A stretch of 64,000 nt of DNA, taken from IMG/VR virus record IMGVR_UViG_3300029024_000001. The stretch is one strand, 5' to 3'. Each line of letters begins with the position of its first letter. Positions within the stretch are counted from its first letter, which is position 1. This DNA comes from a virus. The notes below the pieces were generated by a model. That model was not told the DNA's origin and searched no databases. It was given only the letters and a program-made list of their open reading frames with translations. Below, piece by piece: positions 3,001-43,444 of the stretch. The position numbers and the translations under genes were made by a program.

Positions 3001-3421
3001 TGATGTGAATTACACACTTGACAGAAAAGTGGGTTTGGATACGATAACTATCTACAACGACACAAATAACTCAGGCGAGATCCATCTTGTCCCTGAAGAA
3101 AAAAATAATCTTATGCAGCGAGTGCTGTATCCAAAGGTGGAAGGTAATTATACTGAGGTCTTGGATACTGAAGTTTATAGAAGGCATAAGTTGAATGATT
3201 TCTTTAACCGAGTTGATGATGATAGGTCGGGAACTCCAATATGGATAAAGGATGATAACGATATAAATAAGTCGGTTAATCCTGATGCTCTTAATTTTAG
3301 ACGGTCATGGTTGGATAGGCTGAGAGGAAGCTGGATGCTTATGAGGATAAAAAAAGTTATCAGCAACAGGAAGATTATATTCCAGTGGTTAATTTCGGAA
3401 GATAAGATTAAGAATAGATGA
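2..3421 (+). CDS. Large virion or tail-associated structural protein. The N-terminus is cut off by the window edge.
   Basis: The frame is open back to base 2 with no upstream stop. The tool start at 17 is TTG. The product is at least 1134 aa. It heads a plus-strand block of giant ORFs, and a hairpin plus T-run follows at 3429-3475. Confidence 0.6.
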   Translation, partial: YYGAPLSDKDGLSYFKGHSYGGVDTSTVFCQQPIRHYRFPDNKHIPFMNSDERGYDIASEIYPVGIMVDENTIQVFLDFAVDSGLITQQQRDTIVGYELYRGDRRLNRSVVASGLAYDMLRYIGDDGNVNIYPNYPYNDLSQDQYNYTSGKRDEFISHPFDKGGNVWYSFCSPDIYFNKPELPNEVCIDGFQRGMSVGSFVPVEDHPKWTILGPAAYTMAASLAAVESSATIAAMIAEELQIRAQSGYIGGSAGLTGGGFLTNLSVAMLFSSMVSTISQTLAKGPILYGKYRYDWLNTFINNGPRRNHAWYYTSVGLYNSMIGVTDQDKYERNFARGLSSVKYMKSGVYPMMDASMSSKWGTGKNDNEGRFLFVNNIDRESSLFLSFGDPGEKGDGKSKYLLEYPNYVYNYDSSRIDDSVIAGRDVVAGRTFEQSKSVSYICSPYMRLMRYRPDQYGQIEDIKWISIGGCGFFTNEKKLMFGGDTVITRFSLKRKFPIFYNSAFGIGDMIPFPYMDYRNVGYPRYFVNYDTGEDALEVTDNERFNSWTSSNKGRYQFYPNRKSLYELNGDTAGKYVDGRFYTWFYGIPQFLVESEINCNFRLEGPQPHELFYPKVGDFVWWTQEKNVSIHRDNDYKISPIYSSRMTLTPNVLPATYERRFYDCAYQRPNGVIWSRADVSENSQTDPWLTYKPMDYHEFPTGNGKLIHMKRIESDQILVRFEDQVSLHNAIDVIKERTAPGQAEMGTGGLFASRPLEYNTTDLGYSGTQSTEIISSEFGHFWVDTKRAQVFMTDPNGRNLKELSVGIRHWLKRHLPFKILRYGITNILTGTEITEEDTDNKFIGLGLSLGWDNRYKRVLITKKDYIPVKNPAYYKYDGGKFLYNETEVLSNDKEISLKDEQYFKDVSFTIGYSCLKQEWISYYSFCPDYYIEQQQYFQTGINFPASDEEGGLWSHLLTNKSFQTFYGTTYPFILEVPIKEKYNGSTLASVEYELDARKYVDDVNYTLDRKVGLDTITIYNDTNNSGEIHLVPEEKNNLMQRVLYPKVEGNYTEVLDTEVYRRHKLNDFFNRVDDDRSGTPIWIKDDNDINKSVNPDALNFRRSWLDRLRGSWMLMRIKKVISNRKIIFQWLISEDKIKNR

Positions 3422-3428
3422 TAACTCA

Positions 3429-3475
3429 TTACCCGATAGCTTACTAAGAATAATGCCATCGGGTAATTTATATAA
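3429..3475 (+). terminator. Candidate intrinsic terminator after giant ORF 1
   Basis: A 9-bp stem ttacccgat/atcgggtaa (3429-3437 / 3458-3466) is followed by tttatat. The loop is long, about 20 nt. Confidence 0.4.
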
Positions 3476-3486
3476 AACAGATTGCT

Positions 3487-3885
3487 ATGAAACAGGTATC
3501 GTATAAAAATGACATATATCCTTACAATATAAGGGTATTGCTTGGGGCAGATGAAGAGTATATAGTTAAGACGTTCGCCAACCTGGAAGTAGAAGATCAG
3601 AGCTGGGAGGGGTGGACTGATGATTATGGTGGCAGAACTATTTTCGTAGGAAACCGAACCAATCACAGGAAAGAAATATGTTTCTTGTTTCATTCACTGT
3701 CTAATATGGATGTTAGAACCATAGGACACGAATGTCTGCACGGTCTTTCCCTTTATTGTAAGTATCTTAATATTAACTACAGTTTTGACGCCGGAGAAGA
3801 TGAGCACGCTGCCTATCTAATGGGATGGTTGGTTGACAAGGTTTGTGATGCTTACCACAAATTTAAGAAGGAGGAAGAAAAATGA
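3487..3885 (+). CDS. Small HExxH zincin-like protein, putative metallopeptidase, paralog 1
   Basis: It carries a HECLH motif and a downstream GEDEHAAYLMGW segment, with Glu as a possible third zinc ligand. It is a clear paralog of the next ORF. Confidence 0.55.
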   Translation: MKQVSYKNDIYPYNIRVLLGADEEYIVKTFANLEVEDQSWEGWTDDYGGRTIFVGNRTNHRKEICFLFHSLSNMDVRTIGHECLHGLSLYCKYLNINYSFDAGEDEHAAYLMGWLVDKVCDAYHKFKKEEEK

Positions 3886-4301
3886 AAGAAAAAGAATTTG
3901 ATTTTGTGATATATCCACTAAAGTTGATTATCACCATAGGGTTAGATTACAAAACATTGTGTGATCGTTTTGAGAATGCAGAATTGGATCATGAAGGAGA
4001 ATGGGGAGATGAAGGCGATTTAGATTCAGAAGTCTCTTTTATGAATCTTGTTCGTGATAAGGGAGATGATAGAGCTTTTAAGTTATTATGGAATTTTCAA
4101 AGTGAGAATGATATGACTATACAAAACATATGTCATGAATCATTTCATGCAGCTATGTCGGTATGCCAACATTGTAATATGTCTCTTGGCTTTAAGGTGG
4201 GAGAAGATGAACACGCAGCTTACATAGCCGGATTTGTTGGTAATTGCGCAGGTGAAATGTTTGGATTCTTAGAGGAAGAAAAAAATGGCAAAGAAGAATA
4301 A
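3882..4301 (+). CDS. Small HExxH zincin-like protein, putative metallopeptidase, paralog 2
   Basis: It carries a HESFH motif and GEDEHAAYIAGF, matching paralog 1. Its start makes an ATGA overlap with the previous stop. Confidence 0.55.
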   Translation: MKEKEFDFVIYPLKLIITIGLDYKTLCDRFENAELDHEGEWGDEGDLDSEVSFMNLVRDKGDDRAFKLLWNFQSENDMTIQNICHESFHAAMSVCQHCNMSLGFKVGEDEHAAYIAGFVGNCAGEMFGFLEEEKNGKEE

Positions 4302-6540
4302 ATCAGATTGGAAACCCTCAGAAAATATACTAAAATATTTGAAATCGTGGGAAAAGTTTGAGCCTGAATTATATGACGACAAGAAGGGGAATATAACAAT
4401 CGGGTACGGATTTCATCTTCCTCATCTTCTTAAAAAATACAAGAATGGTATAACAGTAGAAGAGGCCGATAAGGAATTTGAAGGTGTAGTTAATACGTTT
4501 GTTCCGGAATTTATACGAAGAACTCCTAATTTCAAAAATCTAAACAATAATCAGAGAGATGCTTTGTTTAGCTTGTTTTACAATACAGGAGGACCAGAGT
4601 ATTCTAAAAGCCCGATGCTTTTCAAATACCTTAAAGAAGGTGATTATGATAAGGCGGTGAAAGAAATAAATCACAATGAAAACGAGAAAGGTATGGGCGG
4701 CCAGAAGAAGCGCCGTGCCTTCGAGCGCCGGGTGTTCTCTACGCCGACAGACCAGCCCTGGACGGTGGATGATGACAGTAACTATGTCCTGATTGAAGAC
4801 AAGCCTGTAGAGAACGAATCTATAGAAAAAGATACTAATGATTCAAAGTATGAAGACGCTCGTCATGTAGCCGCAAAATACGGTGATACAGGTTATGTAG
4901 GTAGAGGATATGACGGAGATAAGGTCAGGGTGTCTGATTCGAATATAAAATCAGTTGGTATATCCAATAACGCTGATCCTGATAAGTGGTATGAATCCGT
5001 TAATCCAATATTAGACACTGATCCTATTAGTTTAATAGCCGATTTTATTCCTACTGTGAAACGAATGTTGGATCCTAATAGGGAGCGATCAGGGGAAGAT
5101 ACAGCCACAGATTTTGAAGAAAAAATGTGGAAGGCTTACACTGATGGAGATATAAGTAGATTACCGGCGAGCAAGTATCGTTTTGATGACGATGATGATG
5201 ATGCTCAGTATGTAGGATTGCCTCAAGAACAAGCTATTTTGATACAATCTTTATTAGATAAAGAGTATATGAACAACATGCTTGATGAGGCATATAAGGA
5301 CGCTGATGAAAAAAGTAAACGAAAAATAAGAGATTATAAGAAGGTCCTTGATAAACTAAATAAAAATATATTTGAAAATCCAGGAAAATGGATTTTAGTA
5401 AATGAAGGTGTAAGTCCATTTAGAGAAGAGGTATATGGTGACAATTTTGAAAAAGTAAACGAAGCTTCCGGATTAGGTGCGTTGAAGAATTTCAGTGTAA
5501 GATGGGATCCGGATGCTGGTATGTTGGATGTGAAGGATGATTATGATTTTAGCCGAAAAAAGATAGCGGAAGACATCATACCGGAAAGGGATGTTCCTCT
5601 TAGAATAAGGGAACGCATCAAATACGATCCTAAGAAAGGTAGTGTTCTTCGAAATAATGACAAGGCTTTACCTAAAAGGTTTGTAAGGAAATACGAAGAA
5701 GGTGGTGTTGTAAATAAACAACGTGAAGCATACGAATACTTTACTAATAAGCGCGGCATGTCCAAGATACAGGCGCTTGCTATCATAGGTAATCTCATGG
5801 CTGAATCCGGTCTTAAAGATGACATATACGGAGACAACAGAACATCATACGGCATACAGCAATGGCATAATGAGCGTATGGATAAGCTATTCAAGCACGC
5901 CAAAAAGAAAGGTCATTCTACACCAACATTCAAAGACCAACTTGAGTTTTTAGCTGATGAATACGAAGGGAAAACCGGATATTCTAATTTCTTATACACA
6001 AGAAAAGGAAAAGAAGGACCAGGGTATTACAACTACAGCCGGCAGGACTTTATGAACGCCGATAACCTGAAAGATGCTGTAGTAGCTTGGAACCAAGGAG
6101 CAGGACGTCCTCATAAGAGTGTTATAAGAAACGATGACCGTTATAATTATGCTATGGAGGTTGCTAAAAATCTTGGTTTGGAAATTGAAGAAAATTCCGT
6201 ATCTTCGTATGGTCAAATGGGATTCGGAGATGATGCTGAAATAGCAGCATCGGTAACACTTCCAGAGGTAGAAGTGGCAGCCGCCCTTCCTAACCCGGAA
6301 GTCCCGTCCCAGGAGAGACAGTCCGAGGAAGAGAGATTCCGTACATGGACTGAAACGTATGGTAAGGACATCATAAATCATTTACTGACGTTAGACGGGA
6401 AAAAGGATGGTGATGACAGTGATTACAGCATGATGTATAAACAGCATGAAAAAGAAAGCGAAGAGGATAAGAAAATGGCTTTGATTAATGCCGTGCTTCC
6501 CAATATTCAGCTTCGCATTAAAGGCGTCACCGATAATTAG
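4285..6540 (+). CDS. Virion-associated peptidoglycan hydrolase with two lytic domains: an N-terminal GH24 lysozyme-like domain and a tail-tip-lysozyme-like domain
   Basis: The N-terminus reads ITIGYGFH...QRDALFSLFYNTGG, which resembles the T4 lysozyme YTIGIGH...RRCALINMVFQMGETG. Residues around 490-620 read ALAIIGNLMAESGL...YGIQQWHNERMDKL...QLEFLADEYEG, which resembles the phage tail-tip lysozyme family. Confidence 0.65.
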   Translation: MAKKNKSDWKPSENILKYLKSWEKFEPELYDDKKGNITIGYGFHLPHLLKKYKNGITVEEADKEFEGVVNTFVPEFIRRTPNFKNLNNNQRDALFSLFYNTGGPEYSKSPMLFKYLKEGDYDKAVKEINHNENEKGMGGQKKRRAFERRVFSTPTDQPWTVDDDSNYVLIEDKPVENESIEKDTNDSKYEDARHVAAKYGDTGYVGRGYDGDKVRVSDSNIKSVGISNNADPDKWYESVNPILDTDPISLIADFIPTVKRMLDPNRERSGEDTATDFEEKMWKAYTDGDISRLPASKYRFDDDDDDAQYVGLPQEQAILIQSLLDKEYMNNMLDEAYKDADEKSKRKIRDYKKVLDKLNKNIFENPGKWILVNEGVSPFREEVYGDNFEKVNEASGLGALKNFSVRWDPDAGMLDVKDDYDFSRKKIAEDIIPERDVPLRIRERIKYDPKKGSVLRNNDKALPKRFVRKYEEGGVVNKQREAYEYFTNKRGMSKIQALAIIGNLMAESGLKDDIYGDNRTSYGIQQWHNERMDKLFKHAKKKGHSTPTFKDQLEFLADEYEGKTGYSNFLYTRKGKEGPGYYNYSRQDFMNADNLKDAVVAWNQGAGRPHKSVIRNDDRYNYAMEVAKNLGLEIEENSVSSYGQMGFGDDAEIAASVTLPEVEVAAALPNPEVPSQERQSEEERFRTWTETYGKDIINHLLTLDGKKDGDDSDYSMMYKQHEKESEEDKKMALINAVLPNIQLRIKGVTDN

Positions 6541-6803
6541 AACAATATTATTTTATTTCCTCATATTAATAAAGCGAAGCCGGATTTGAGACTCGTTACA
6601 CGGATACCGAAGGTTGAAGAACGTCATCAAGATAATCCGGCTTTTCTGTGCGATTTCGTGAAGGATGGAACTATCATCGCCTTTGTTTAACAGAACAGAC
6701 CTACGTACTTCCACTGTCCTGACAGGCATGGACGCCCGTCTCGCCTACCAGCCTGCCTAATTCTCCACTGGCTACCTAATATAATTATTAACGTCACTCC
6801 ATC

Positions 6804-6828
6804 ACCTATCTCCCTTCAGTCGATAGGT
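6804..6828 (+). repeat. Stem-loop H1: 7-bp stem with 11-nt loop TCCCTTCAGTC
   Basis: acctatc / gataggt flank the loop tcccttcagtc. It is the first of three hairpins with a conserved loop. Confidence 0.6.
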
Positions 6829-6861
6829 TCAGTCGTTTTTAAATATTATAAGTTTTTTCGC

Positions 6862-6882
6862 ATCGTTCCCTTCGGTCACGAT
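6862..6882 (+). repeat. Stem-loop H2: 5-bp stem with 11-nt loop TCCCTTCGGTC
   Basis: atcgt / acgat flank the loop tcccttcggtc. Confidence 0.55.
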
Positions 6883-6953
6883 ACTCAATCTTTTAACACA
6901 ATTAGGCAAACAATACAATAGACGAAAAAAGTAATTTGTCAATCCGTTCACTC

Positions 6954-6978
6954 ACTTAACTCCCTTCGGTCGTTAAGT
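6954..6978 (+). repeat. Stem-loop H3: 7-bp stem with 11-nt loop TCCCTTCGGTC
   Basis: acttaac / gttaagt flank the loop tcccttcggtc. The stem sequence differs from H1 and H2 while the loop is identical. Confidence 0.6.
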
Positions 6979-7201
6979 TCATTCACTGCAAACAATTATA
7001 TGAATAAATGGTAAAGTATATAAAATAATATAAATAATATAATGAGTAAGATCATTAAAAATGGTCTTAATATTAAGGAAAACGGAGACTATTTATAGGC
7101 GTAGTTTTAATTCAAGATTTGTTGTCCCACTCCTGACGGTCAGACGGTTACGTTCAGGGTCATTTTCCCGTCTCTTATCCAAACCGTCATAAAATAAAAA
7201 A

Positions 7202-7255
7202 CCTTGTATCCTATTTCTCTCAAACCGGATACAAGGCAGTGCATTTTCTTCTTTT
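7202..7255 (+). terminator. Intrinsic terminator-like hairpin
   Basis: A perfect 10-bp stem ccttgtatcc/ggatacaagg with a 15-nt loop is followed by a T-rich tract, cattttcttctttttat. Confidence 0.5.
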
Positions 7256-7267
7256 TATGTAAAATCA

Positions 7268-7275
7268 TATATTTG
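7268..7275 (+). promoter_or_regulatory. Bacteroidota sigma-A -7 element TATATTTG, matching the TAnnTTTG consensus
   Basis: It is an exact consensus match about 20 nt upstream of the ATG at 7296. Confidence 0.5.
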
Positions 7276-7295
7276 CACTAAAAAACAAAAACAAT

Positions 7296-8315
7296 ATGGA
7301 GACAAAAATAACTGAAATAATGAATCCTCACAAGTTACACGACAAGCTCTTCAAGAAAGAGCAGGTCTCTCCGATAGAAGTTATATACAATAGCTTCAGC
7401 AACTTAGGGTATAATGTAGTACGCCGTCCATCTGGTCAGTGTTTAGGCAATTTGAGATATTTTAATCTATTTTATGATAAGCATACTCATCATTTCTATC
7501 AGAAAGACAGGAAGTTGAGATATTGTAGCAACTTTCTCATATCTGATTACTGGAAAGATAGAGTGCGATGTTTCATAGTTTGGAACTTTGGATTTGGGAG
7601 ATTCTTTCCATATAATGACTTTATTGAAGCTATGGTTTATGACTATCTTCGATATGGGAGAAAGTCAGTTCCTTATCTTAAAAGCGTGCAAGAGGCTGAA
7701 GAAAAGTGTGTAAGGTTCTATATCCGGTCTCAGATAGACATGCTTCGTAAGGAAGGATATGCTGCATACCGGGCTAAGTTTAAGGAAGAACGTCCTCAGT
7801 ATTTCATCGGAGACGATAGGACGGTGTTTAGATGCCTTGACAGCTCTTTAAAAAGAGAAGAGAAGATTGCTGCATGCGTAGCCCACAAAAGGGCTTTAAA
7901 AGAAGGGATAATGACTTCCTTCATCAATCACCTTAAGAAACATCCTACCACTTTATATTCGTGGTTTTCATCAGAGGTAGATAGCGAAGGAAAGAATAGG
8001 CTCTGTCTATCTGAAAAGGCTGTTTCGTATTTGAATAAGAGACTGGTTCGCAATGGGTTAAAGTCTCTTTCTGCATCATATCTTTTTAGAACGTTTAGAA
8101 AAATGGTGAAGATCTTGTTCGGTTTCAATGTCAGGTCGTTCTTGAATAGCTGTCTGATGTCTGTTTCAACAGAAGAGGTTTTAACCAAATCTATGAAGAA
8201 AATAGTTTCCAAGACGGTGCTGTTTTTGTACAAGAGAGCGCTTAAGAACTATCGCCGGGCATGCGGTCTTAAGTACGACCCTGATTCGGGCGGTTTGTCT
8301 GCCGTACATGATTGA
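7296..8315 (+). CDS. Hypothetical basic, aromatic-rich protein forming an isolated transcription unit inside the structural block
   Basis: It is a 339-aa ORF with its own promoter. A 755-bp non-coding island lies upstream. I recognised no family motif. Confidence 0.55.
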   Translation: METKITEIMNPHKLHDKLFKKEQVSPIEVIYNSFSNLGYNVVRRPSGQCLGNLRYFNLFYDKHTHHFYQKDRKLRYCSNFLISDYWKDRVRCFIVWNFGFGRFFPYNDFIEAMVYDYLRYGRKSVPYLKSVQEAEEKCVRFYIRSQIDMLRKEGYAAYRAKFKEERPQYFIGDDRTVFRCLDSSLKREEKIAACVAHKRALKEGIMTSFINHLKKHPTTLYSWFSSEVDSEGKNRLCLSEKAVSYLNKRLVRNGLKSLSASYLFRTFRKMVKILFGFNVRSFLNSCLMSVSTEEVLTKSMKKIVSKTVLFLYKRALKNYRRACGLKYDPDSGGLSAVHD

Positions 8316-8361
8316 TTTTTAAACGTATCCCATAACGTTGGATTTTCTCGTTCGTTTCTCT

Positions 8362-8369
8362 TATCTTTG
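8362..8369 (+). promoter_or_regulatory. Bacteroidota -7 element TATCTTTG
   Basis: It matches TAnnTTTG and ends 14 nt before the ATG at 8384. It overlaps the GTG start proposed by the ORF track, which argues for the 8384 start. Confidence 0.45.
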
Positions 8370-42258: not shown

Positions 42259-42428
42259 TGGACTCCCTTTAAGTAGTTAAACCATATATCCTCCAGCTTC
42301 TCCTGAAGCTCAAATGCTTTCTTAAAATTCCCGCATCTTACAGCAACGTCTCTCATGTATGTCAAGTTTATAACTTCCGGATCTTGCCGGTATTTTGTTC
42401 TTAACTTTTGAACATCCTCGTATTTCAT
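42255..42428 (-). CDS. Hypothetical small protein of 57 aa, not in the ORF track
   Basis: Its ATG makes an ATGA overlap with the upstream stop, and its TGA makes an ATGA overlap with the downstream start. The product is MKYEDVQKLRTKYRQDPEVINLTYMRDVAVRCGNFKKAFELQEKLEDIWFNYLKGVQ. Confidence 0.4.
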   Translation of the reverse strand: MKYEDVQKLRTKYRQDPEVINLTYMRDVAVRCGNFKKAFELQEKLEDIWFNYLKGVQ

Positions 42429-43444
42429 CGCTTTATCTTTTTAGACGGATCCCAATCTGAAGAGAAAGGGCATTCGTTTTTGTTATGTAATCCAAAGTCA
42501 CAATAATAACACAGTGCCGACGGGCAGGGTAGCTTGTTTTGCGAAACAGGCTGGCTTAGGGTGGCACGCCGCTTGCTATACCTGGCTCCTTCTGCTCCCT
42601 GGATGTACGCTTGAAATGATTTTACACTATTATCTTCAAAATCATACATTTTAGATAAAGTGTCATTTAGCATCTCTATAGATTTTGTTTTACGTTCCTC
42701 ATCCACTTTAACCTTTTGGTATTGTCTGGTCCTGGTAAAGAAATAGATGTTCATATCTGGCAGAACTCCACCATATTTTCTATAGATGTAAAACGAATAT
42801 ATAGGATGCTGTAAATTCGTTTCCAACTTCTTAGAATCAAAAACCTTATTACCTGATTTCCAATCTATGACATAATGGTGAACTACGTTCTTGCTCTTTA
42901 TAGCCAGATGAAGATCTACCGATCCTACTATGTACACATGTGTATGAACGTCACCATTTATATCAACAGGCTTAGGAAGACGATACGGCAGCACAAAATC
43001 TTCTTCGACTCCAATTATAGCGCCGTGTCTGATAAGTTTCTCACAGGGATTAAGATCACTATCAGCTATCATAAACCTATTGCCGTCTTTTTTGAACAGA
43101 TCCACAATCCAAGCAAGAAGCTCCCCAGATTGTTTCATGGCTATCATCATATTTTCCGGTGATTGCCAAGGTATGTCTTCTTGATAGGAATAGTAACTTA
43201 TCGCTTCTCCAAGGTCTTTACCAGAAGGCTGTCTTCCGTTCTTAAAGAAGTATTCCAGTGTTTTATGGATAACCGTACCATAAGATGTAGCTTCTTGTTT
43301 TTCTGTAGACCTTTTACCCTCTACGTAAGTCTTATACCATTTCATTGGACAAGTAAGAAACGTATCTATCTGGGAATAAGATATGGCAAGACGTTTCACA
43401 CCATTAAACTCCTTATATAGCAAATGTGTTTCCGGGACCATCAT
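42425..43444 (-). CDS. Cas4-like or RecB-family PD-(D/E)xK exonuclease with a 4-Cys Fe-S cluster signature
   Basis: The N-terminus has SYSQIDTFLTCPMKWY. It has IDWKSG as the (D/E)xK motif and QHPIYSFYIY as the QxxxY motif. A C-terminal CPSALCYYC together with the N-terminal Cys gives four Fe-S ligands. Confidence 0.65.
   Translation of the reverse strand: MMVPETHLLYKEFNGVKRLAISYSQIDTFLTCPMKWYKTYVEGKRSTEKQEATSYGTVIHKTLEYFFKNGRQPSGKDLGEAISYYSYQEDIPWQSPENMMIAMKQSGELLAWIVDLFKKDGNRFMIADSDLNPCEKLIRHGAIIGVEEDFVLPYRLPKPVDINGDVHTHVYIVGSVDLHLAIKSKNVVHHYVIDWKSGNKVFDSKKLETNLQHPIYSFYIYRKYGGVLPDMNIYFFTRTRQYQKVKVDEERKTKSIEMLNDTLSKMYDFEDNSVKSFQAYIQGAEGARYSKRRATLSQPVSQNKLPCPSALCYYCDFGLHNKNECPFSSDWDPSKKIKR

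Follow-up and report, generated by a model that had tools for sequence, protein, structure and literature searches.

Three conserved minus-strand hairpins in a gene-free island of an apparent Epsilon crAss-like phage: most likely part of a new structured non-coding RNA of putative function

Known hairpin signals and the present locus

In the boxB element of phage lambda and the put element of HK022, small phage RNA hairpins are read by a protein or by RNA polymerase through a purine-rich cap rather than through the stem; their site of action is the sense strand of the operon under their control, ahead of terminators. The CsrB/RsmZ-type non-coding RNAs (ncRNAs) carry several copies of a short recognition motif on hairpins within one molecule, and the GGA motifs of the CsrA type sit in open loops; to our knowledge, CsrA is not a Bacteroidota system. 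In type III systems, the ToxI antitoxin consists of RNA repeats that adjoin the gene of the partner protein, with a terminator between the two, and these are direct repeats on the toxN strand that are cut by ToxN. The oriV of RSF1010 combines AT-rich with GC-rich sequence, a setting that the locus described here resembles.

Among hairpins that act as single-stranded DNA (ssDNA), the early promoters P1-P3 of the phage N4 virion RNA polymerase (vRNAP) lie as three copies in one region, each with a short hairpin on the template strand; the stems must pair but are otherwise free in sequence, the conserved cap has a purine-rich 3-nt loop (GGA or GAA) closed by C-G, and the complementary strand forms a weaker hairpin (PMC4496689, PMC13037366). 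In these promoters, stems of 5-7 bp are directly capped by the triloop, the hairpins span -17 to +1 of early genes that lie at the end of the genome, transcription begins about 11 nt past the centre of the loop, and a T7-like vRNAP is needed. The mini-hairpin CCGAAGG of RSF1010 ssiA is recognised by the RepB' primase, the complementary-strand origin of G4 has several adjacent hairpins with mini-hairpin motifs, and DNA mini-hairpins of extraordinary stability are typified by GNA triloops closed by C-G and by tandem G·A pairs (PMC13037366). Such ssi signals serve ssDNA or strand-displacement replicons with a dedicated primase.

The locus analysed here lies in a window of 64,000 nucleotides (the whole stretch of DNA under study) from a ~150-kb dsDNA phage that appears to belong to the Epsilon crAss-like group. 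Epsilon-type phages make up 13-18% of crAss-like phage reads and are abundant in the human gut (PMC7886860), and the expression and replication of their genomes are poorly known. A 755-bp gene-free island (6541-7295) carries three hairpins, H1-H3, followed by the gene of a basic ORFan. As at the N4 promoters, three short hairpins with free but paired, covarying stems stand on one strand, with triloops (GAA, GGA or GUA) closed by C-G and a weaker complementary hairpin; unlike N4, a conserved tandem G·A plus 2-bp element separates the triloop from a 7-bp stem, GA dinucleotides flank the module, one lineage has a GUGA tetraloop, and other minus-strand RNA signals accompany the hairpins. The cap heptamer CCGAAGG is identical to that of ssiA and several hairpins are adjacent as in G4, but the island is dispensable and variably present in a large dsDNA phage, with its three copies on one strand and a structure of more than 250 nt. 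Motif copies on hairpins and AGGA/YAGG-rich sequence recall the CsrB/RsmZ type. In contrast to ToxI, the stems differ, the RNA would run divergently to the ORF and no toxin family matches the ORFan, and in contrast to boxB and put, the hairpins are antisense to all neighbouring genes, which lie on the plus strand, and downstream of a terminator.

The island and its three hairpins

Direct reading of the sequence bore out the presence of three hairpins with the same 11-nt centre and unrelated 7-bp stems. In the plus-strand reading, H1 (6804-6828) is acctatc-TCCCTTCAGTC-gataggt, H3 (6954-6978) is acttaac-TCCCTTCGGTC-gttaagt, and H2 (6862-6882) is atcgt-TCCCTTCGGTC-acgat, extended to 7 bp (6860-6884) once one pair, C·A on the plus and U·G on the minus strand, is allowed. 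The copies lie 56 and 94 nt apart, within a block of structural genes. A scan of the 64-kb window for the 11-mer with at most one mismatch returned the three hairpin sites only. This count alone is not significant, at least three matches being found in 13 of 100 shuffles, and about one match per shuffled window is expected for the cap C[CT]GNAGG with a flanking stem of at least 5 bp, the hairpins here having 7-bp stems. Unlike the bare 11-mer count, the hairpin context is significant, since a covariance model singled out the three sites with 53-64 bits (E ≤ 4e-13) and gave at most 11 bits (E > 1) elsewhere in the 64 kb.

The claim of a preliminary interpretation of this DNA (hereafter, the sequence-only reading) that the island has no credible ORF also held: the longest ORF in 6541-7295 encodes 58 aa, no reading frame is open throughout 26 homologous islands, and no small protein is conserved among them. 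Rfam 15 gave no match at gathering thresholds in the whole window and chance-level matches only (E > 3) in 6000-8000, ARAGORN found zero tRNAs or tmRNAs in the window, and literature searches on the phage name and on the motif returned nothing relevant. H1-H3 are not themselves intrinsic terminators, that is, GC-rich hairpins directly followed by a U-tract: a U-run directly after them is absent on both strands, and a consensus scan of 6300-7500 called no terminator-like sites.

Strand and cap structure

The sequence-only reading had placed the hairpins on the plus strand, which the natural variation contradicts. Across 16 distinct natural hairpin variants, pairing reaches 96.6% of the cells on the minus strand, where 7 pair positions include G·U, as against 88.1% and zero G·U on the plus strand (6 unpaired cells versus 21/176). 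The would-be plus-strand equivalents of the G·U pairs are A·C, and in ~112 unique island sequences each natural stem transition yields a wobble on the minus strand only. Since every wobble pair is G·U there, the hairpin structure belongs to the minus strand. Each hairpin folds ~4-7 kcal/mol better on the minus than on the plus strand (H1, -10.9 vs -7.3; H2, -11.8 vs -5.0; H3, -10.8 vs -6.8 kcal/mol), and the whole-island fold reaches -195 kcal/mol (z -3.4) on the minus strand vs -152 kcal/mol (z -2.2) on the plus strand. The three hairpins are very stable, evolutionarily conserved and formed on the minus strand. The island is, moreover, the sole stretch of a 34-kb block of plus-strand genes with minus-strand G and purine excess, which elsewhere in the window follows the sense strand. 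In genome scans, both strands need testing; the wobble pattern here reverses the obvious reading.

Selection on a structure at the single-strand level, as had been proposed, is supported by double-sided changes at 8/11 pairs among the 16 variants and by the retention of the hairpins through compensatory changes in four diverged lineages, so that relatives carry the motif on changing but paired stems. With no conserved small protein in the island either, neither of the outcomes that the sequence-only reading had named as refuting it was seen. The presumed invariant 11-nt loop is a shared centre, as described, but not an open loop, since position 3 pairs with 9 and position 4 with 8, and both pairs covary. 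In minus sense, the cap begins with tandem G·A, continues with CC/GG and ends in a GNA triloop (GA-CC-GAA-GG-GA); at the tandem G·A sites, the plus strand would be left with pyrimidine-pyrimidine mismatches. The complete module, in minus sense, is 5'-YGA-[7 bp]-GA-CC-GNA-GG-GA-[7 bp]-GAR-3', and the previously noticed cactc and ttca(g/t)tc flanking motifs are real, being the complements of the conserved minus-strand GA dinucleotides that flank the stems. Cap pair 3-9 is C-G, G-C (hairpin a of L200) or, by eye, A-U (H3 of L204/L322), and pair 4-8 is C-G, U·G or U-A; the heptamers among natural variants are CCGAAGG, CCGGAGG, CCGTAGG, GCGAAGC and CTGAAGG. In L350, the cap (GACGUGAGGA) has switched to GA-C-GUGA-G-GA in both detectable copies. 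Because GNA triloops and tandem G·A mark stable DNA mini-hairpins, the conserved cap also fits an ssDNA element.

Signals surrounding the hairpins

The left boundary of the island is a terminator-like hairpin of the upstream lysozyme operon on the plus strand (6577-6643; arms 6577-6586 and 6634-6643, then TTTTC). Its stem covaries (agccggatt/aatccggct in the window vs agccgagcc/ggctcggct in L204), in the variant aatccggTtt the T-run is longer and a plus-strand G·T is formed, and the conserved 47-nt interior includes a plus-strand CCGAAGG (6607-6613), which is kept in L204. The GC-rich patch of the sequence-only reading is confirmed (58% GC at 6690-6779) and coincides with a conserved block that is G-rich on the minus strand (6700-6777; GC 58%, negative GC skew), with repeated YAGG/AGGA motifs in the alignments and a covarying hairpin at 6721-6740 (RNAalifold pairs 727-747 in the alignment: GC<->AU, UG/UA). 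To its right, all on the minus strand, lie H1 (6797-6835; stem 6804-6810/6822-6828; cap GA-CU-GAA-GG-GA at 6811-6821; flanking GA dinucleotides; 56.2 bits in the covariance model), H2 (6853-6891; 7-bp stem 6860-6866/6878-6884 including one U·G; cap GA-CC-GAA-GG-GA at 6867-6877; 53.1 bits) and H3 (6947-6985; stem 6954-6960/6972-6978; cap as in H2, at 6961-6971; 63.7 bits), the last with two outer pairs beyond the second tandem G·A. A minus-strand segment of the H3-H2 spacer (6903-6919) is predicted to pair with the G-rich block (~6709-6747) in a long-range helix that encloses H2 and H1. Its 12 pairs, many of them U·G, are 97.4% paired in 26 sequences, and three show double-sided changes between paralogues, a covariation that rests on essentially two clades; as the helix was predicted on the same alignment, the evidence for it is only moderate.

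Further right, an AT-rich spacer with no assigned strand (6990-7080; GC 12-28%) keeps its AT-richness in all lineages with poorly conserved sequence, and a conserved minus-strand block follows (7111-7163; ...CGTAAC..CTGA-NNN-TCAG-GGTGGGACAA...ATCTTGAAT in minus sense), with an invariant 4-bp putative mini-hairpin in which no covariation was seen. The inverted repeat at 7202, previously described as a 10-bp terminator ending the island, is real, but its orientation is the opposite one: since its A-run (plus 7191-7201) is upstream on the plus strand, it is an intrinsic terminator of minus-strand transcripts (7190-7236; 10-bp stem with arms 7227-7236/7202-7211, a conserved 15-nt loop, then U6-7). 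Its pairs (128-137/153-162 in the alignment) undergo CG<->UA and CG<->AU double changes, its U·G wobbles correspond to A·C on the plus strand, and the lineages have four different stems between them and all retain the U-run. Like the G-rich-block hairpin and the predicted long-range helix, it is a minus-strand-only helix beyond H1-H3.

The -7 consensus of Bacteroides promoters is TAnnTTTG. A -7 box of this Bacteroidota type, found as a promoter-motif match, precedes the ORFan on the plus strand (TATATTTG, 7268-7275); in 6/7 lineages the box lies 26-33 nt upstream of the start codon, the exception being a contig that has only 94 nt of upstream sequence. A second box, TATTTTTG (minus strand, 7303-7310), is located inside ORF codons 3-5 and points leftwards to the terminator and the island, which makes it a candidate divergent promoter, P_as. 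In the window, L200, L350 and L352, a perfect minus-strand TAnnTTTG lies across or directly beside the start codon. Inspection by eye showed this box in further p1 variants as well (aligned as TAACTTTG); in L204 and L242, again judged by eye, no more than 7/8 positions match. Neither motif scans nor inspection by eye revealed a minus-strand host-type promoter in the stretch from the terminator to H3, the island interior has no host-type -7 box on either strand, and no clear minus-strand terminator follows H1.

The neighbouring ORFan and the distribution of the cassette

The basic ORFan (339 aa, pI 9.7; plus strand, 7296-8315) is always found directly downstream of this island type. It matches no Pfam family, and its fold gave no nucleic-acid-binding match; another 339-aa ORF of the window (42425-43444), considered as a paralogue, is unrelated. 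Island and ORFan form a cassette that occurs in at least three different gene neighbourhoods, often twice per genome, and is variably present: it is missing at this site in MT837925.1, its second copy is missing in csAssE-Sib, and the whole hairpin block is deleted in one genome (L058). Individual genomes have gained or lost hairpin units by duplication or deletion (L143, L162, L216, L058, L237), and a TnpB fragment (Cas12f1-like TNB) has been inserted, as a separate insertion, in the island of L051/L138. The paralogues are old (60% protein identity), and since they keep the cap sequence, the stem pairing and the flanking GA dinucleotides through many compensatory changes, the structure is under purifying selection. 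The ORFan family is phage-only, and the distribution suggests that island and ORFan are a candidate RNA-protein or ssDNA-protein pair.

A proposed divergently transcribed structured RNA

Judged from sequence comparison, the island is most likely a new structured ncRNA of putative function. In its full form, to which a probability of about 0.5 is assigned, this reading holds that the island encodes a divergently transcribed, structured minus-strand ncRNA whose hairpins are repeated sites for a co-evolving factor, probably the ORFan. The host-type promoter overlapping the ORFan start codon (-7 box 7310-7303) would fire leftwards. Some transcripts would stop at the terminator (7236-7190), giving an RNA of ~100 nt that overlaps the ORFan 5' end, and others would read through into a purine-rich RNA of ~0.5 kb with three copies of the hairpin module, whose G-rich domain may pair back onto the H3-H2 spacer. 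With a single rigid cap carried on dissimilar stems, the three hairpins would offer one trans-acting factor the same docking site three times. The leading candidate for this factor, the basic 339-aa ORFan, may bind them, as we infer purely from its constant linkage with the hairpins. The role of such an RNA would be accessory, because the cassette is variably present.

Since the hairpins lie beyond an apparently good terminator, most RNA started at the proposed promoter might end short of them, and the outward-facing terminators on both sides could equally insulate a DNA-level element from transcription. Covariation in four lineages and strict strand specificity make this a well-supported structured non-coding element; Rfam has no counterpart of it. 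Unexplained long ncRNAs have already been seen in the crAss-like phage phi14:2, to which an ncRNA from this island would add; an ssDNA signal would instead extend hairpin-directed initiation to Crassvirales. The sequence-only reading had listed protein-binding RNA hairpins, an N4-like promoter, a primase or origin signal and an ncRNA as candidate functions, a list that includes both the best explanation and its main rival.

Alternative explanations

The main rival, regarded as possible though doubtful, is that the minus-strand hairpins act as ssDNA, either as priming signals of the ssi or origin kind or as N4-like template-strand hairpin promoters, with the ORFan as initiator, primase or loader, or polymerase cofactor; synthesis would run rightwards to the AT-rich stretch and the ORFan. 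The cap heptamers belong exactly to the d(GCGNAGC)/CC..GG mini-hairpin class, and the resemblance to ssiA, to the G4 origin and to the N4 promoters, including the poor folding of the complementary pyrimidine strand, points in this direction. So do the adjoining AT-rich stretch (GC 12-15%), the second CCGAAGG, on the plus strand at 6607, and an interior free of host-type -7 boxes between terminators that would block transcription from either side. However, the minus-strand terminator and -7 box are RNA-level signals and indicate that the strand is transcribed at least in part, and a conserved fold that exceeds 250 nt and contains many G·U/G·T pairs is unusual for a dsDNA phage. All three hairpins, moreover, stand on one strand.

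Regarding priming, Epsilon crAss-like phages have no DNA polymerase and minimal replication genes (PMC7886860), so they must recruit host enzymes. General replication origins are essential, universal in a lineage and often placed at a skew switch; by comparison, the losses of the cassette or its hairpin block in MT837925.1, csAssE-Sib and L058 are odd for an essential origin, and the GC-skew switch of this genome is at ~34 kb, away from the island. With respect to promoters, the virion RNAP of phi14:2 shows a preference for ssDNA, with early promoters yet to be defined (bioRxiv 10.1101/2020.03.07.982082), but the long, highly transcribed intergenic regions of phi14:2 contain no similar hairpins. 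This idea is further weakened because the Epsilon group is reported to have no crAss transcription gene block (PMC7886860). The large ORFs of the 64-kb window yielded no match to a polymerase family, and its two giant ORFs match no solved polymerase. A more specific proposal, drawn by analogy and held to be rather unlikely, is that the mini-hairpins would recruit a polymerase or primase to an ssDNA template, with the ORFan as a new hairpin-specific initiator co-evolving with the cap (GA-CC-GAA-GG-GA vs GA-C-GUGA-G-GA).

It is considered improbable that the hairpins are incidental or selfish, that is, a diverged tandem repeat or a mobile-element remnant (MITE-like, or with IS200/IS605-like subterminal hairpins) travelling with the ORFan and having no phage function beyond its own spread. 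The different loci and variable presence of the cassette, the gain and loss of hairpin units and the tolerance of an inserted TnpB fragment would suit such an element, but the structure is kept by compensatory changes in old paralogues, the motif is confined to exactly three copies in the 64 kb rather than scattered, and the sequence showed neither terminal inverted repeats nor target duplications, nor any transposase or HUH motif. Elements of the IS200/IS605 type have hairpins at both ends and an HUH/TnpB transposase; here, no hairpin was found 3' of the ORFan, a protein without a Pfam family. In a single-hairpin pattern scan, the out-of-lineage matches listed had 6/7 stem pairs and lay in coding, often GC-rich or collagen-like sequence, and they were judged to be due to chance.

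The weakest alternative, that the hairpins act in plus-strand RNA as a 5' leader or as processing or anti-terminator sites for downstream genes, is very improbable, for although all neighbouring genes are on that strand, the hairpins form there too (-5 to -7 kcal/mol) and CUUCGG could give a C(UUCG)G tetraloop, the plus strand has the more unpaired cells, zero G·U and the pyrimidine-pyrimidine mismatches, a recurrent G->A change breaks the UUCG loop yet gives a minus-strand U·G, the upstream operon is terminated at 6577-6646, and the ORFan promoter lies downstream of the hairpins.

Other candidates were considered and rejected. A CRISPR array or RNA anti-CRISPR repeat mimic would not fit the unrelated stems of the three copies, and the sole Rfam CRISPR match is at chance level and elsewhere. 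A link to a diversity-generating retroelement (DGR) or retron was discarded, as no template- or variable-repeat-like duplicate of the island occurs in the window and just one paralogue has an RT gene nearby. In csAssE-Sib, a Ro60-like gene and a pair of tRNAs lie ~3 kb upstream; a Y RNA for Ro60 was rejected because the island is present in the window, which has neither a Ro60-like gene nor tRNAs. In a motif-pair scan of IMG/VR, the out-of-lineage matches turned out to be simple tandem arrays of TCCCTTCAGTC or short direct repeats, and they were judged irrelevant.

Hairpins of the island and their strand

The island (6541-7295) lies between a tail lysozyme gene of 751 aa (4285-6540) and the ORFan, a basic ORF of 339 aa (7296-8315; pI 9.7), and this region is 97% identical to that of the human gut phage csAssE-Sib (OR575929.1, 151 kb). 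About 200 near-identical relatives of the phage are found in IMG/VR. The island contains no credible ORF, as the sequence-only reading had stated, its longest being of 58 aa, and no coding frame is open across the homologous islands, which argues against a conserved small protein. The three hairpins claimed in the same reading are present exactly as described, each around TCCCTTC(A/G)GTC: H1 (6804-6828) with the stem acctatc/gataggt, H2 (6862-6882) with atcgt/acgat and H3 (6954-6978) with acttaac/gttaagt, all in plus-strand letters. The 11-mer is unremarkable by itself, at least three matches with at most one mismatch occurring in 13 of 100 shuffles. A covariance model built from natural variants scored H1-H3 at 53-64 bits (E ≤ 4e-13), and in the scan proposed earlier only these three exceeded 11 bits in the 64-kb window. 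Neither an Rfam family nor ARAGORN matched the island.

In a set of 112 unique island sequences (90-99.5% identical), few stretches vary as little as the hairpins, and each substitution in a stem would leave A·C mismatched on the plus strand but makes a G·U wobble on the minus strand, as in acttaac/gtCaagt, actCaac, acCtaac, the g-to-a change at 6972 and the reference H2 itself. When 16 distinct hairpin sequences from three lineages were compared under the structure ...((..(((((((..((...))..)))))))..))..., the minus strand was 96.6% paired, 8 of 11 pairs had double-sided changes and seven pair positions showed G·U; the plus strand gave 88.1% and no G·U, and slid controls gave 36-46%. Each hairpin folds at -10.8 to -11.8 kcal/mol on the minus strand versus -5.0 to -7.3 on the plus strand; for the complete island the values are -195 (minus) and -152 kcal/mol (plus). 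Therefore, the hairpin structure belongs to the minus strand; the element had been seen correctly but assigned to the wrong strand, since the G·U wobbles and better folds occur only or mainly on the minus strand, and action of the hairpins in plus-strand RNA is improbable. In addition, nowhere else in the 34-kb block of plus-strand genes does the minus strand have an excess of G.

The centre, previously described as an invariant 11-nt loop, proved to be folded rather than open and to vary among relatives. On the minus strand it reads G1 A2 C3 C4 G5 A6 A7 G8 G9 G10 A11, in which positions 4 and 8 pair as C-G, as U·G (H1) or as U-A (15 variants), positions 3 and 9 as C-G, as G-C in paralogue hairpin a (GAGCGAAGCGA) or, by eye, as A-U in the L322/L204 sequence (GAACGUAGUGA), and the triloop is GAA, GGA or GUA. 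Position 1, opposite A11, changes from G to U in three variants, and G1·A11 and A2·G10 stand where they could form sheared G·A pairs in tandem. At the outer end of the 7-bp stem, a second GA/GA pair is followed by two more covarying pairs (A-U/U-A/C-G), the minus-strand consensus being 5'-YGA-[7 bp]-GA-CC-GNA-GG-GA-[7 bp]-GAR-3'. The flanking cactc and ttcagtc motifs noticed earlier are real and are the complements of the GA-containing minus-strand flanks.

Terminators, promoters and long-range folding

A left hairpin (arms 6577-6586/6634-6643), whose stems covary between lineages and of which one variant shows G·T on the plus strand and a longer T-run, behaves as a plus-strand terminator of the lysozyme operon. 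Its 47-nt conserved interior carries a plus-strand CCGAAGG mini-hairpin motif at 6607-6613, kept in L204. The 10-bp hairpin with arms at 7202-7211/7227-7236 has four different stem sequences across lineages, a conserved 14-15-nt loop, U·G pairs on the minus strand only and a minus-strand run of U6-9 in every lineage, features that mark it as an intrinsic terminator of that strand. Thus, the terminator earlier placed at 7202 is real and conserved, and belongs to the minus strand.

Bacteroides promoters carry a Bacteroidota-type -7 box, TAnnTTTG, which is found ahead of the ORFan at 7268-7275; an exact minus-strand box lies within the first codons of the ORFan (7303-7310). Exact minus-strand boxes over the first codons or start codon also occur at matching positions in L200, which carries the paralogue cassette, L350 and L352, while other window-type islands show TAACTTTG by eye and L204 and L242 near matches only. 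This suggests a divergent promoter at the ORFan start, whose transcript would run leftwards into the terminator.

RNAalifold on 26 island sequences of both paralogues yielded a hairpin with covariation inside the G-rich block (6721-6740) and a 12-bp helix between the H3-H2 spacer (~6903-6919) and this block (~6709-6747). Although 97% of its pairing is preserved, three of its pairs change on both sides and U·G pairs are numerous, the helix weighs only moderately as evidence because it was predicted on the same alignment that scores it. The G-rich block (6700-6777, minus strand) contains GG-N2-GG-N2-GG-N2-GG (GGCAGGCTGGTAGG) and many YAGG/AGGA motifs, and that of the paralogue (L200, ~4250-4440) reads GGGCAGGGCAGGTAGG; a G-quadruplex or GGA-type protein-binding potential, competing with the predicted long-range helix, is possible.

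Linkage of island and ORFan

The ORFan belongs to neither a Pfam nor a PHROG family, has only 23 relatives among 1.84 billion representative proteins and none in 185,579 genomes of bacteria and archaea, and gave no informative fold match. Its paralogue P0008 (60% identical) has entirely other neighbours, with DUF6808 upstream and DUF5977 downstream, and yet follows a 760-nt island that is non-coding, is homologous to that of the window and shows three hairpins, an AT-rich stretch and the same hairpin-plus-A-run and promoter box. Judging from shared contig names, the two cassettes of island and ORFan lie ~36 kb apart on the same strand on many IMG/VR contigs, for example at ~46.6 and ~84.2 kb in 3300045988_103017 (among L207-L244); a second cassette would fall outside the window. 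One cassette only is present in csAssE-Sib, and in MT837925.1, a distant relative, both island and ORFan are missing between the lysozyme gene and the structural gene that follows it. Since the paralogous cassettes are also alike downstream of the ORFan (window 8320-8369, L200 6050-6115), sharing CCATAAC..., TTTCT.TATCTTTG and the next gene's -7 box, duplication may have covered a unit that reaches as far as this promoter.

The cassette arrangement is kept in the L204/L322 lineage, at 83% protein identity, and in the L350 lineage, where the homologue, P0017, is more distant. Both detectable copies in L350 have changed their cap to GACGUGAGGA, namely tandem G·A, C-G and a GUGA tetraloop, and the two hairpins fold at -21 and -12 kcal/mol on the minus strand versus -8.8 and -4.3 on the plus strand. 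The still more distant L352 (416-aa homologue) has a 1.1-kb island without H1-H3-type hairpins and the same terminator-promoter-ORF junction as the window. That island (L352 1405-2500) is non-coding and G-rich on the plus strand (GTAGG/TAGGG repeats), with TGAGCGA repeated about five times. The gene directly upstream of that island in L353 encodes 362 aa, the length of the ORFan homologue P0018. Outside the lineage, the matches listed for the hairpin pattern were only chance ones in coding DNA.

The hairpin unit is duplicated in L143, L162 and L216, while L058 lacks 6766-7054 and L237 one hairpin; a purely selfish repeat is an improbable explanation of the hairpins. Additionally, L051 (2780-3333) and L138 carry an insertion of ~550 bp at window ~6623-6626, an IS200/IS605-type relic whose minus strand encodes a 140-aa fragment matching the Cas12f1-like TNB (TnpB) domain (E 1e-11).

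Possible function

We favour the reading that the island encodes a structured ncRNA on its minus strand, in which the hairpins are a docking site repeated three times, because of the strand-specific pairing along its whole length, the minus-strand promoter box and intrinsic terminator, the purine-rich composition and the absence of a coding frame. Transcription fired leftwards from the putative divergent promoter would reach the hairpins by read-through of the terminator. The hairpins would then dock a co-evolving trans-acting partner, most simply perhaps the neighbouring ORFan, because the island is strictly linked to this basic, phage-only protein and because the cap switch in L350 affects both copies, those of one lineage remaining alike. 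Being variably present and duplicated, the cassette bears the mark of an accessory. The weak point of the ncRNA reading is that H1-H3 lie downstream of the minus-strand terminator, and neither an internal promoter nor a distal minus-strand terminator was found in the island.

It is unlikely that H1-H3 are a priming or promoter signal in single-stranded DNA, with synthesis running rightwards, even though the caps CCGAAGG, CCGGAGG, CCGTAGG and GCGAAGC are textbook DNA mini-hairpins and the insulated, promoter-less interior with its adjoining AT-rich stretch would suit such a signal. H2 and H3 share the CCGAAGG cap with RSF1010 ssiA, the G4 origin has several hairpins of mini-hairpin type (PMC13037366), and in N4 the virion-RNAP promoters are hairpins of the template strand, with GGA/GAA loops and conserved bases, the cap being conserved on free stems as in H1-H3 (PMC13037366; PMC4496689). 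If this were right, the plus-strand CCGAAGG at 6607-6613 would be their opposite-strand partner. However, the cassette is dispensable, the fold is extended, H1-H3 all lie on one strand, the skew switch is elsewhere and no suitable polymerase was found within the window. Distant relatives of the structural proteins occur in Cellulophaga phages phi4:1 and phi17:2, and the latter belongs to the Epsilon group of crAss-like phages, with genomes of ~150 kb and minimal replication genes without DNA polymerase, in which a published survey reports the crAss transcription gene block as absent (PMC7886860).

The element may work in the manner of multi-hairpin recognition arrays already known, although it could be placed in none of the specific families considered; no curated RNA family matched it and no description was found in the literature. 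It is genuine, conserved and lineage-specific, a structured non-coding module of an abundant group of gut phages.

Neighbouring features

At ~34000, gene orientation and GC/AT skew change sign where plus-strand structural genes meet minus-strand genes, and this convergent junction is a more conventional candidate than the island for a replication terminus or origin landmark. An insertion in csAssE-Sib (3229-5198, versus window 3421-4285) lies between the muzzle protein and lysozyme genes and comprises a Ro60-related (Rsr-like) gene as well as two tRNAs, annotated as Tyr and Lys. The window has two phrog_1365 small ORFs at this site instead, lacks the Ro60-like gene and these tRNAs, and contains no tRNA genes according to ARAGORN. 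In csAssE-Sib, the phage Ro60 and adjacent tRNA-like genes could be a Y-RNA/YrlA-type system.
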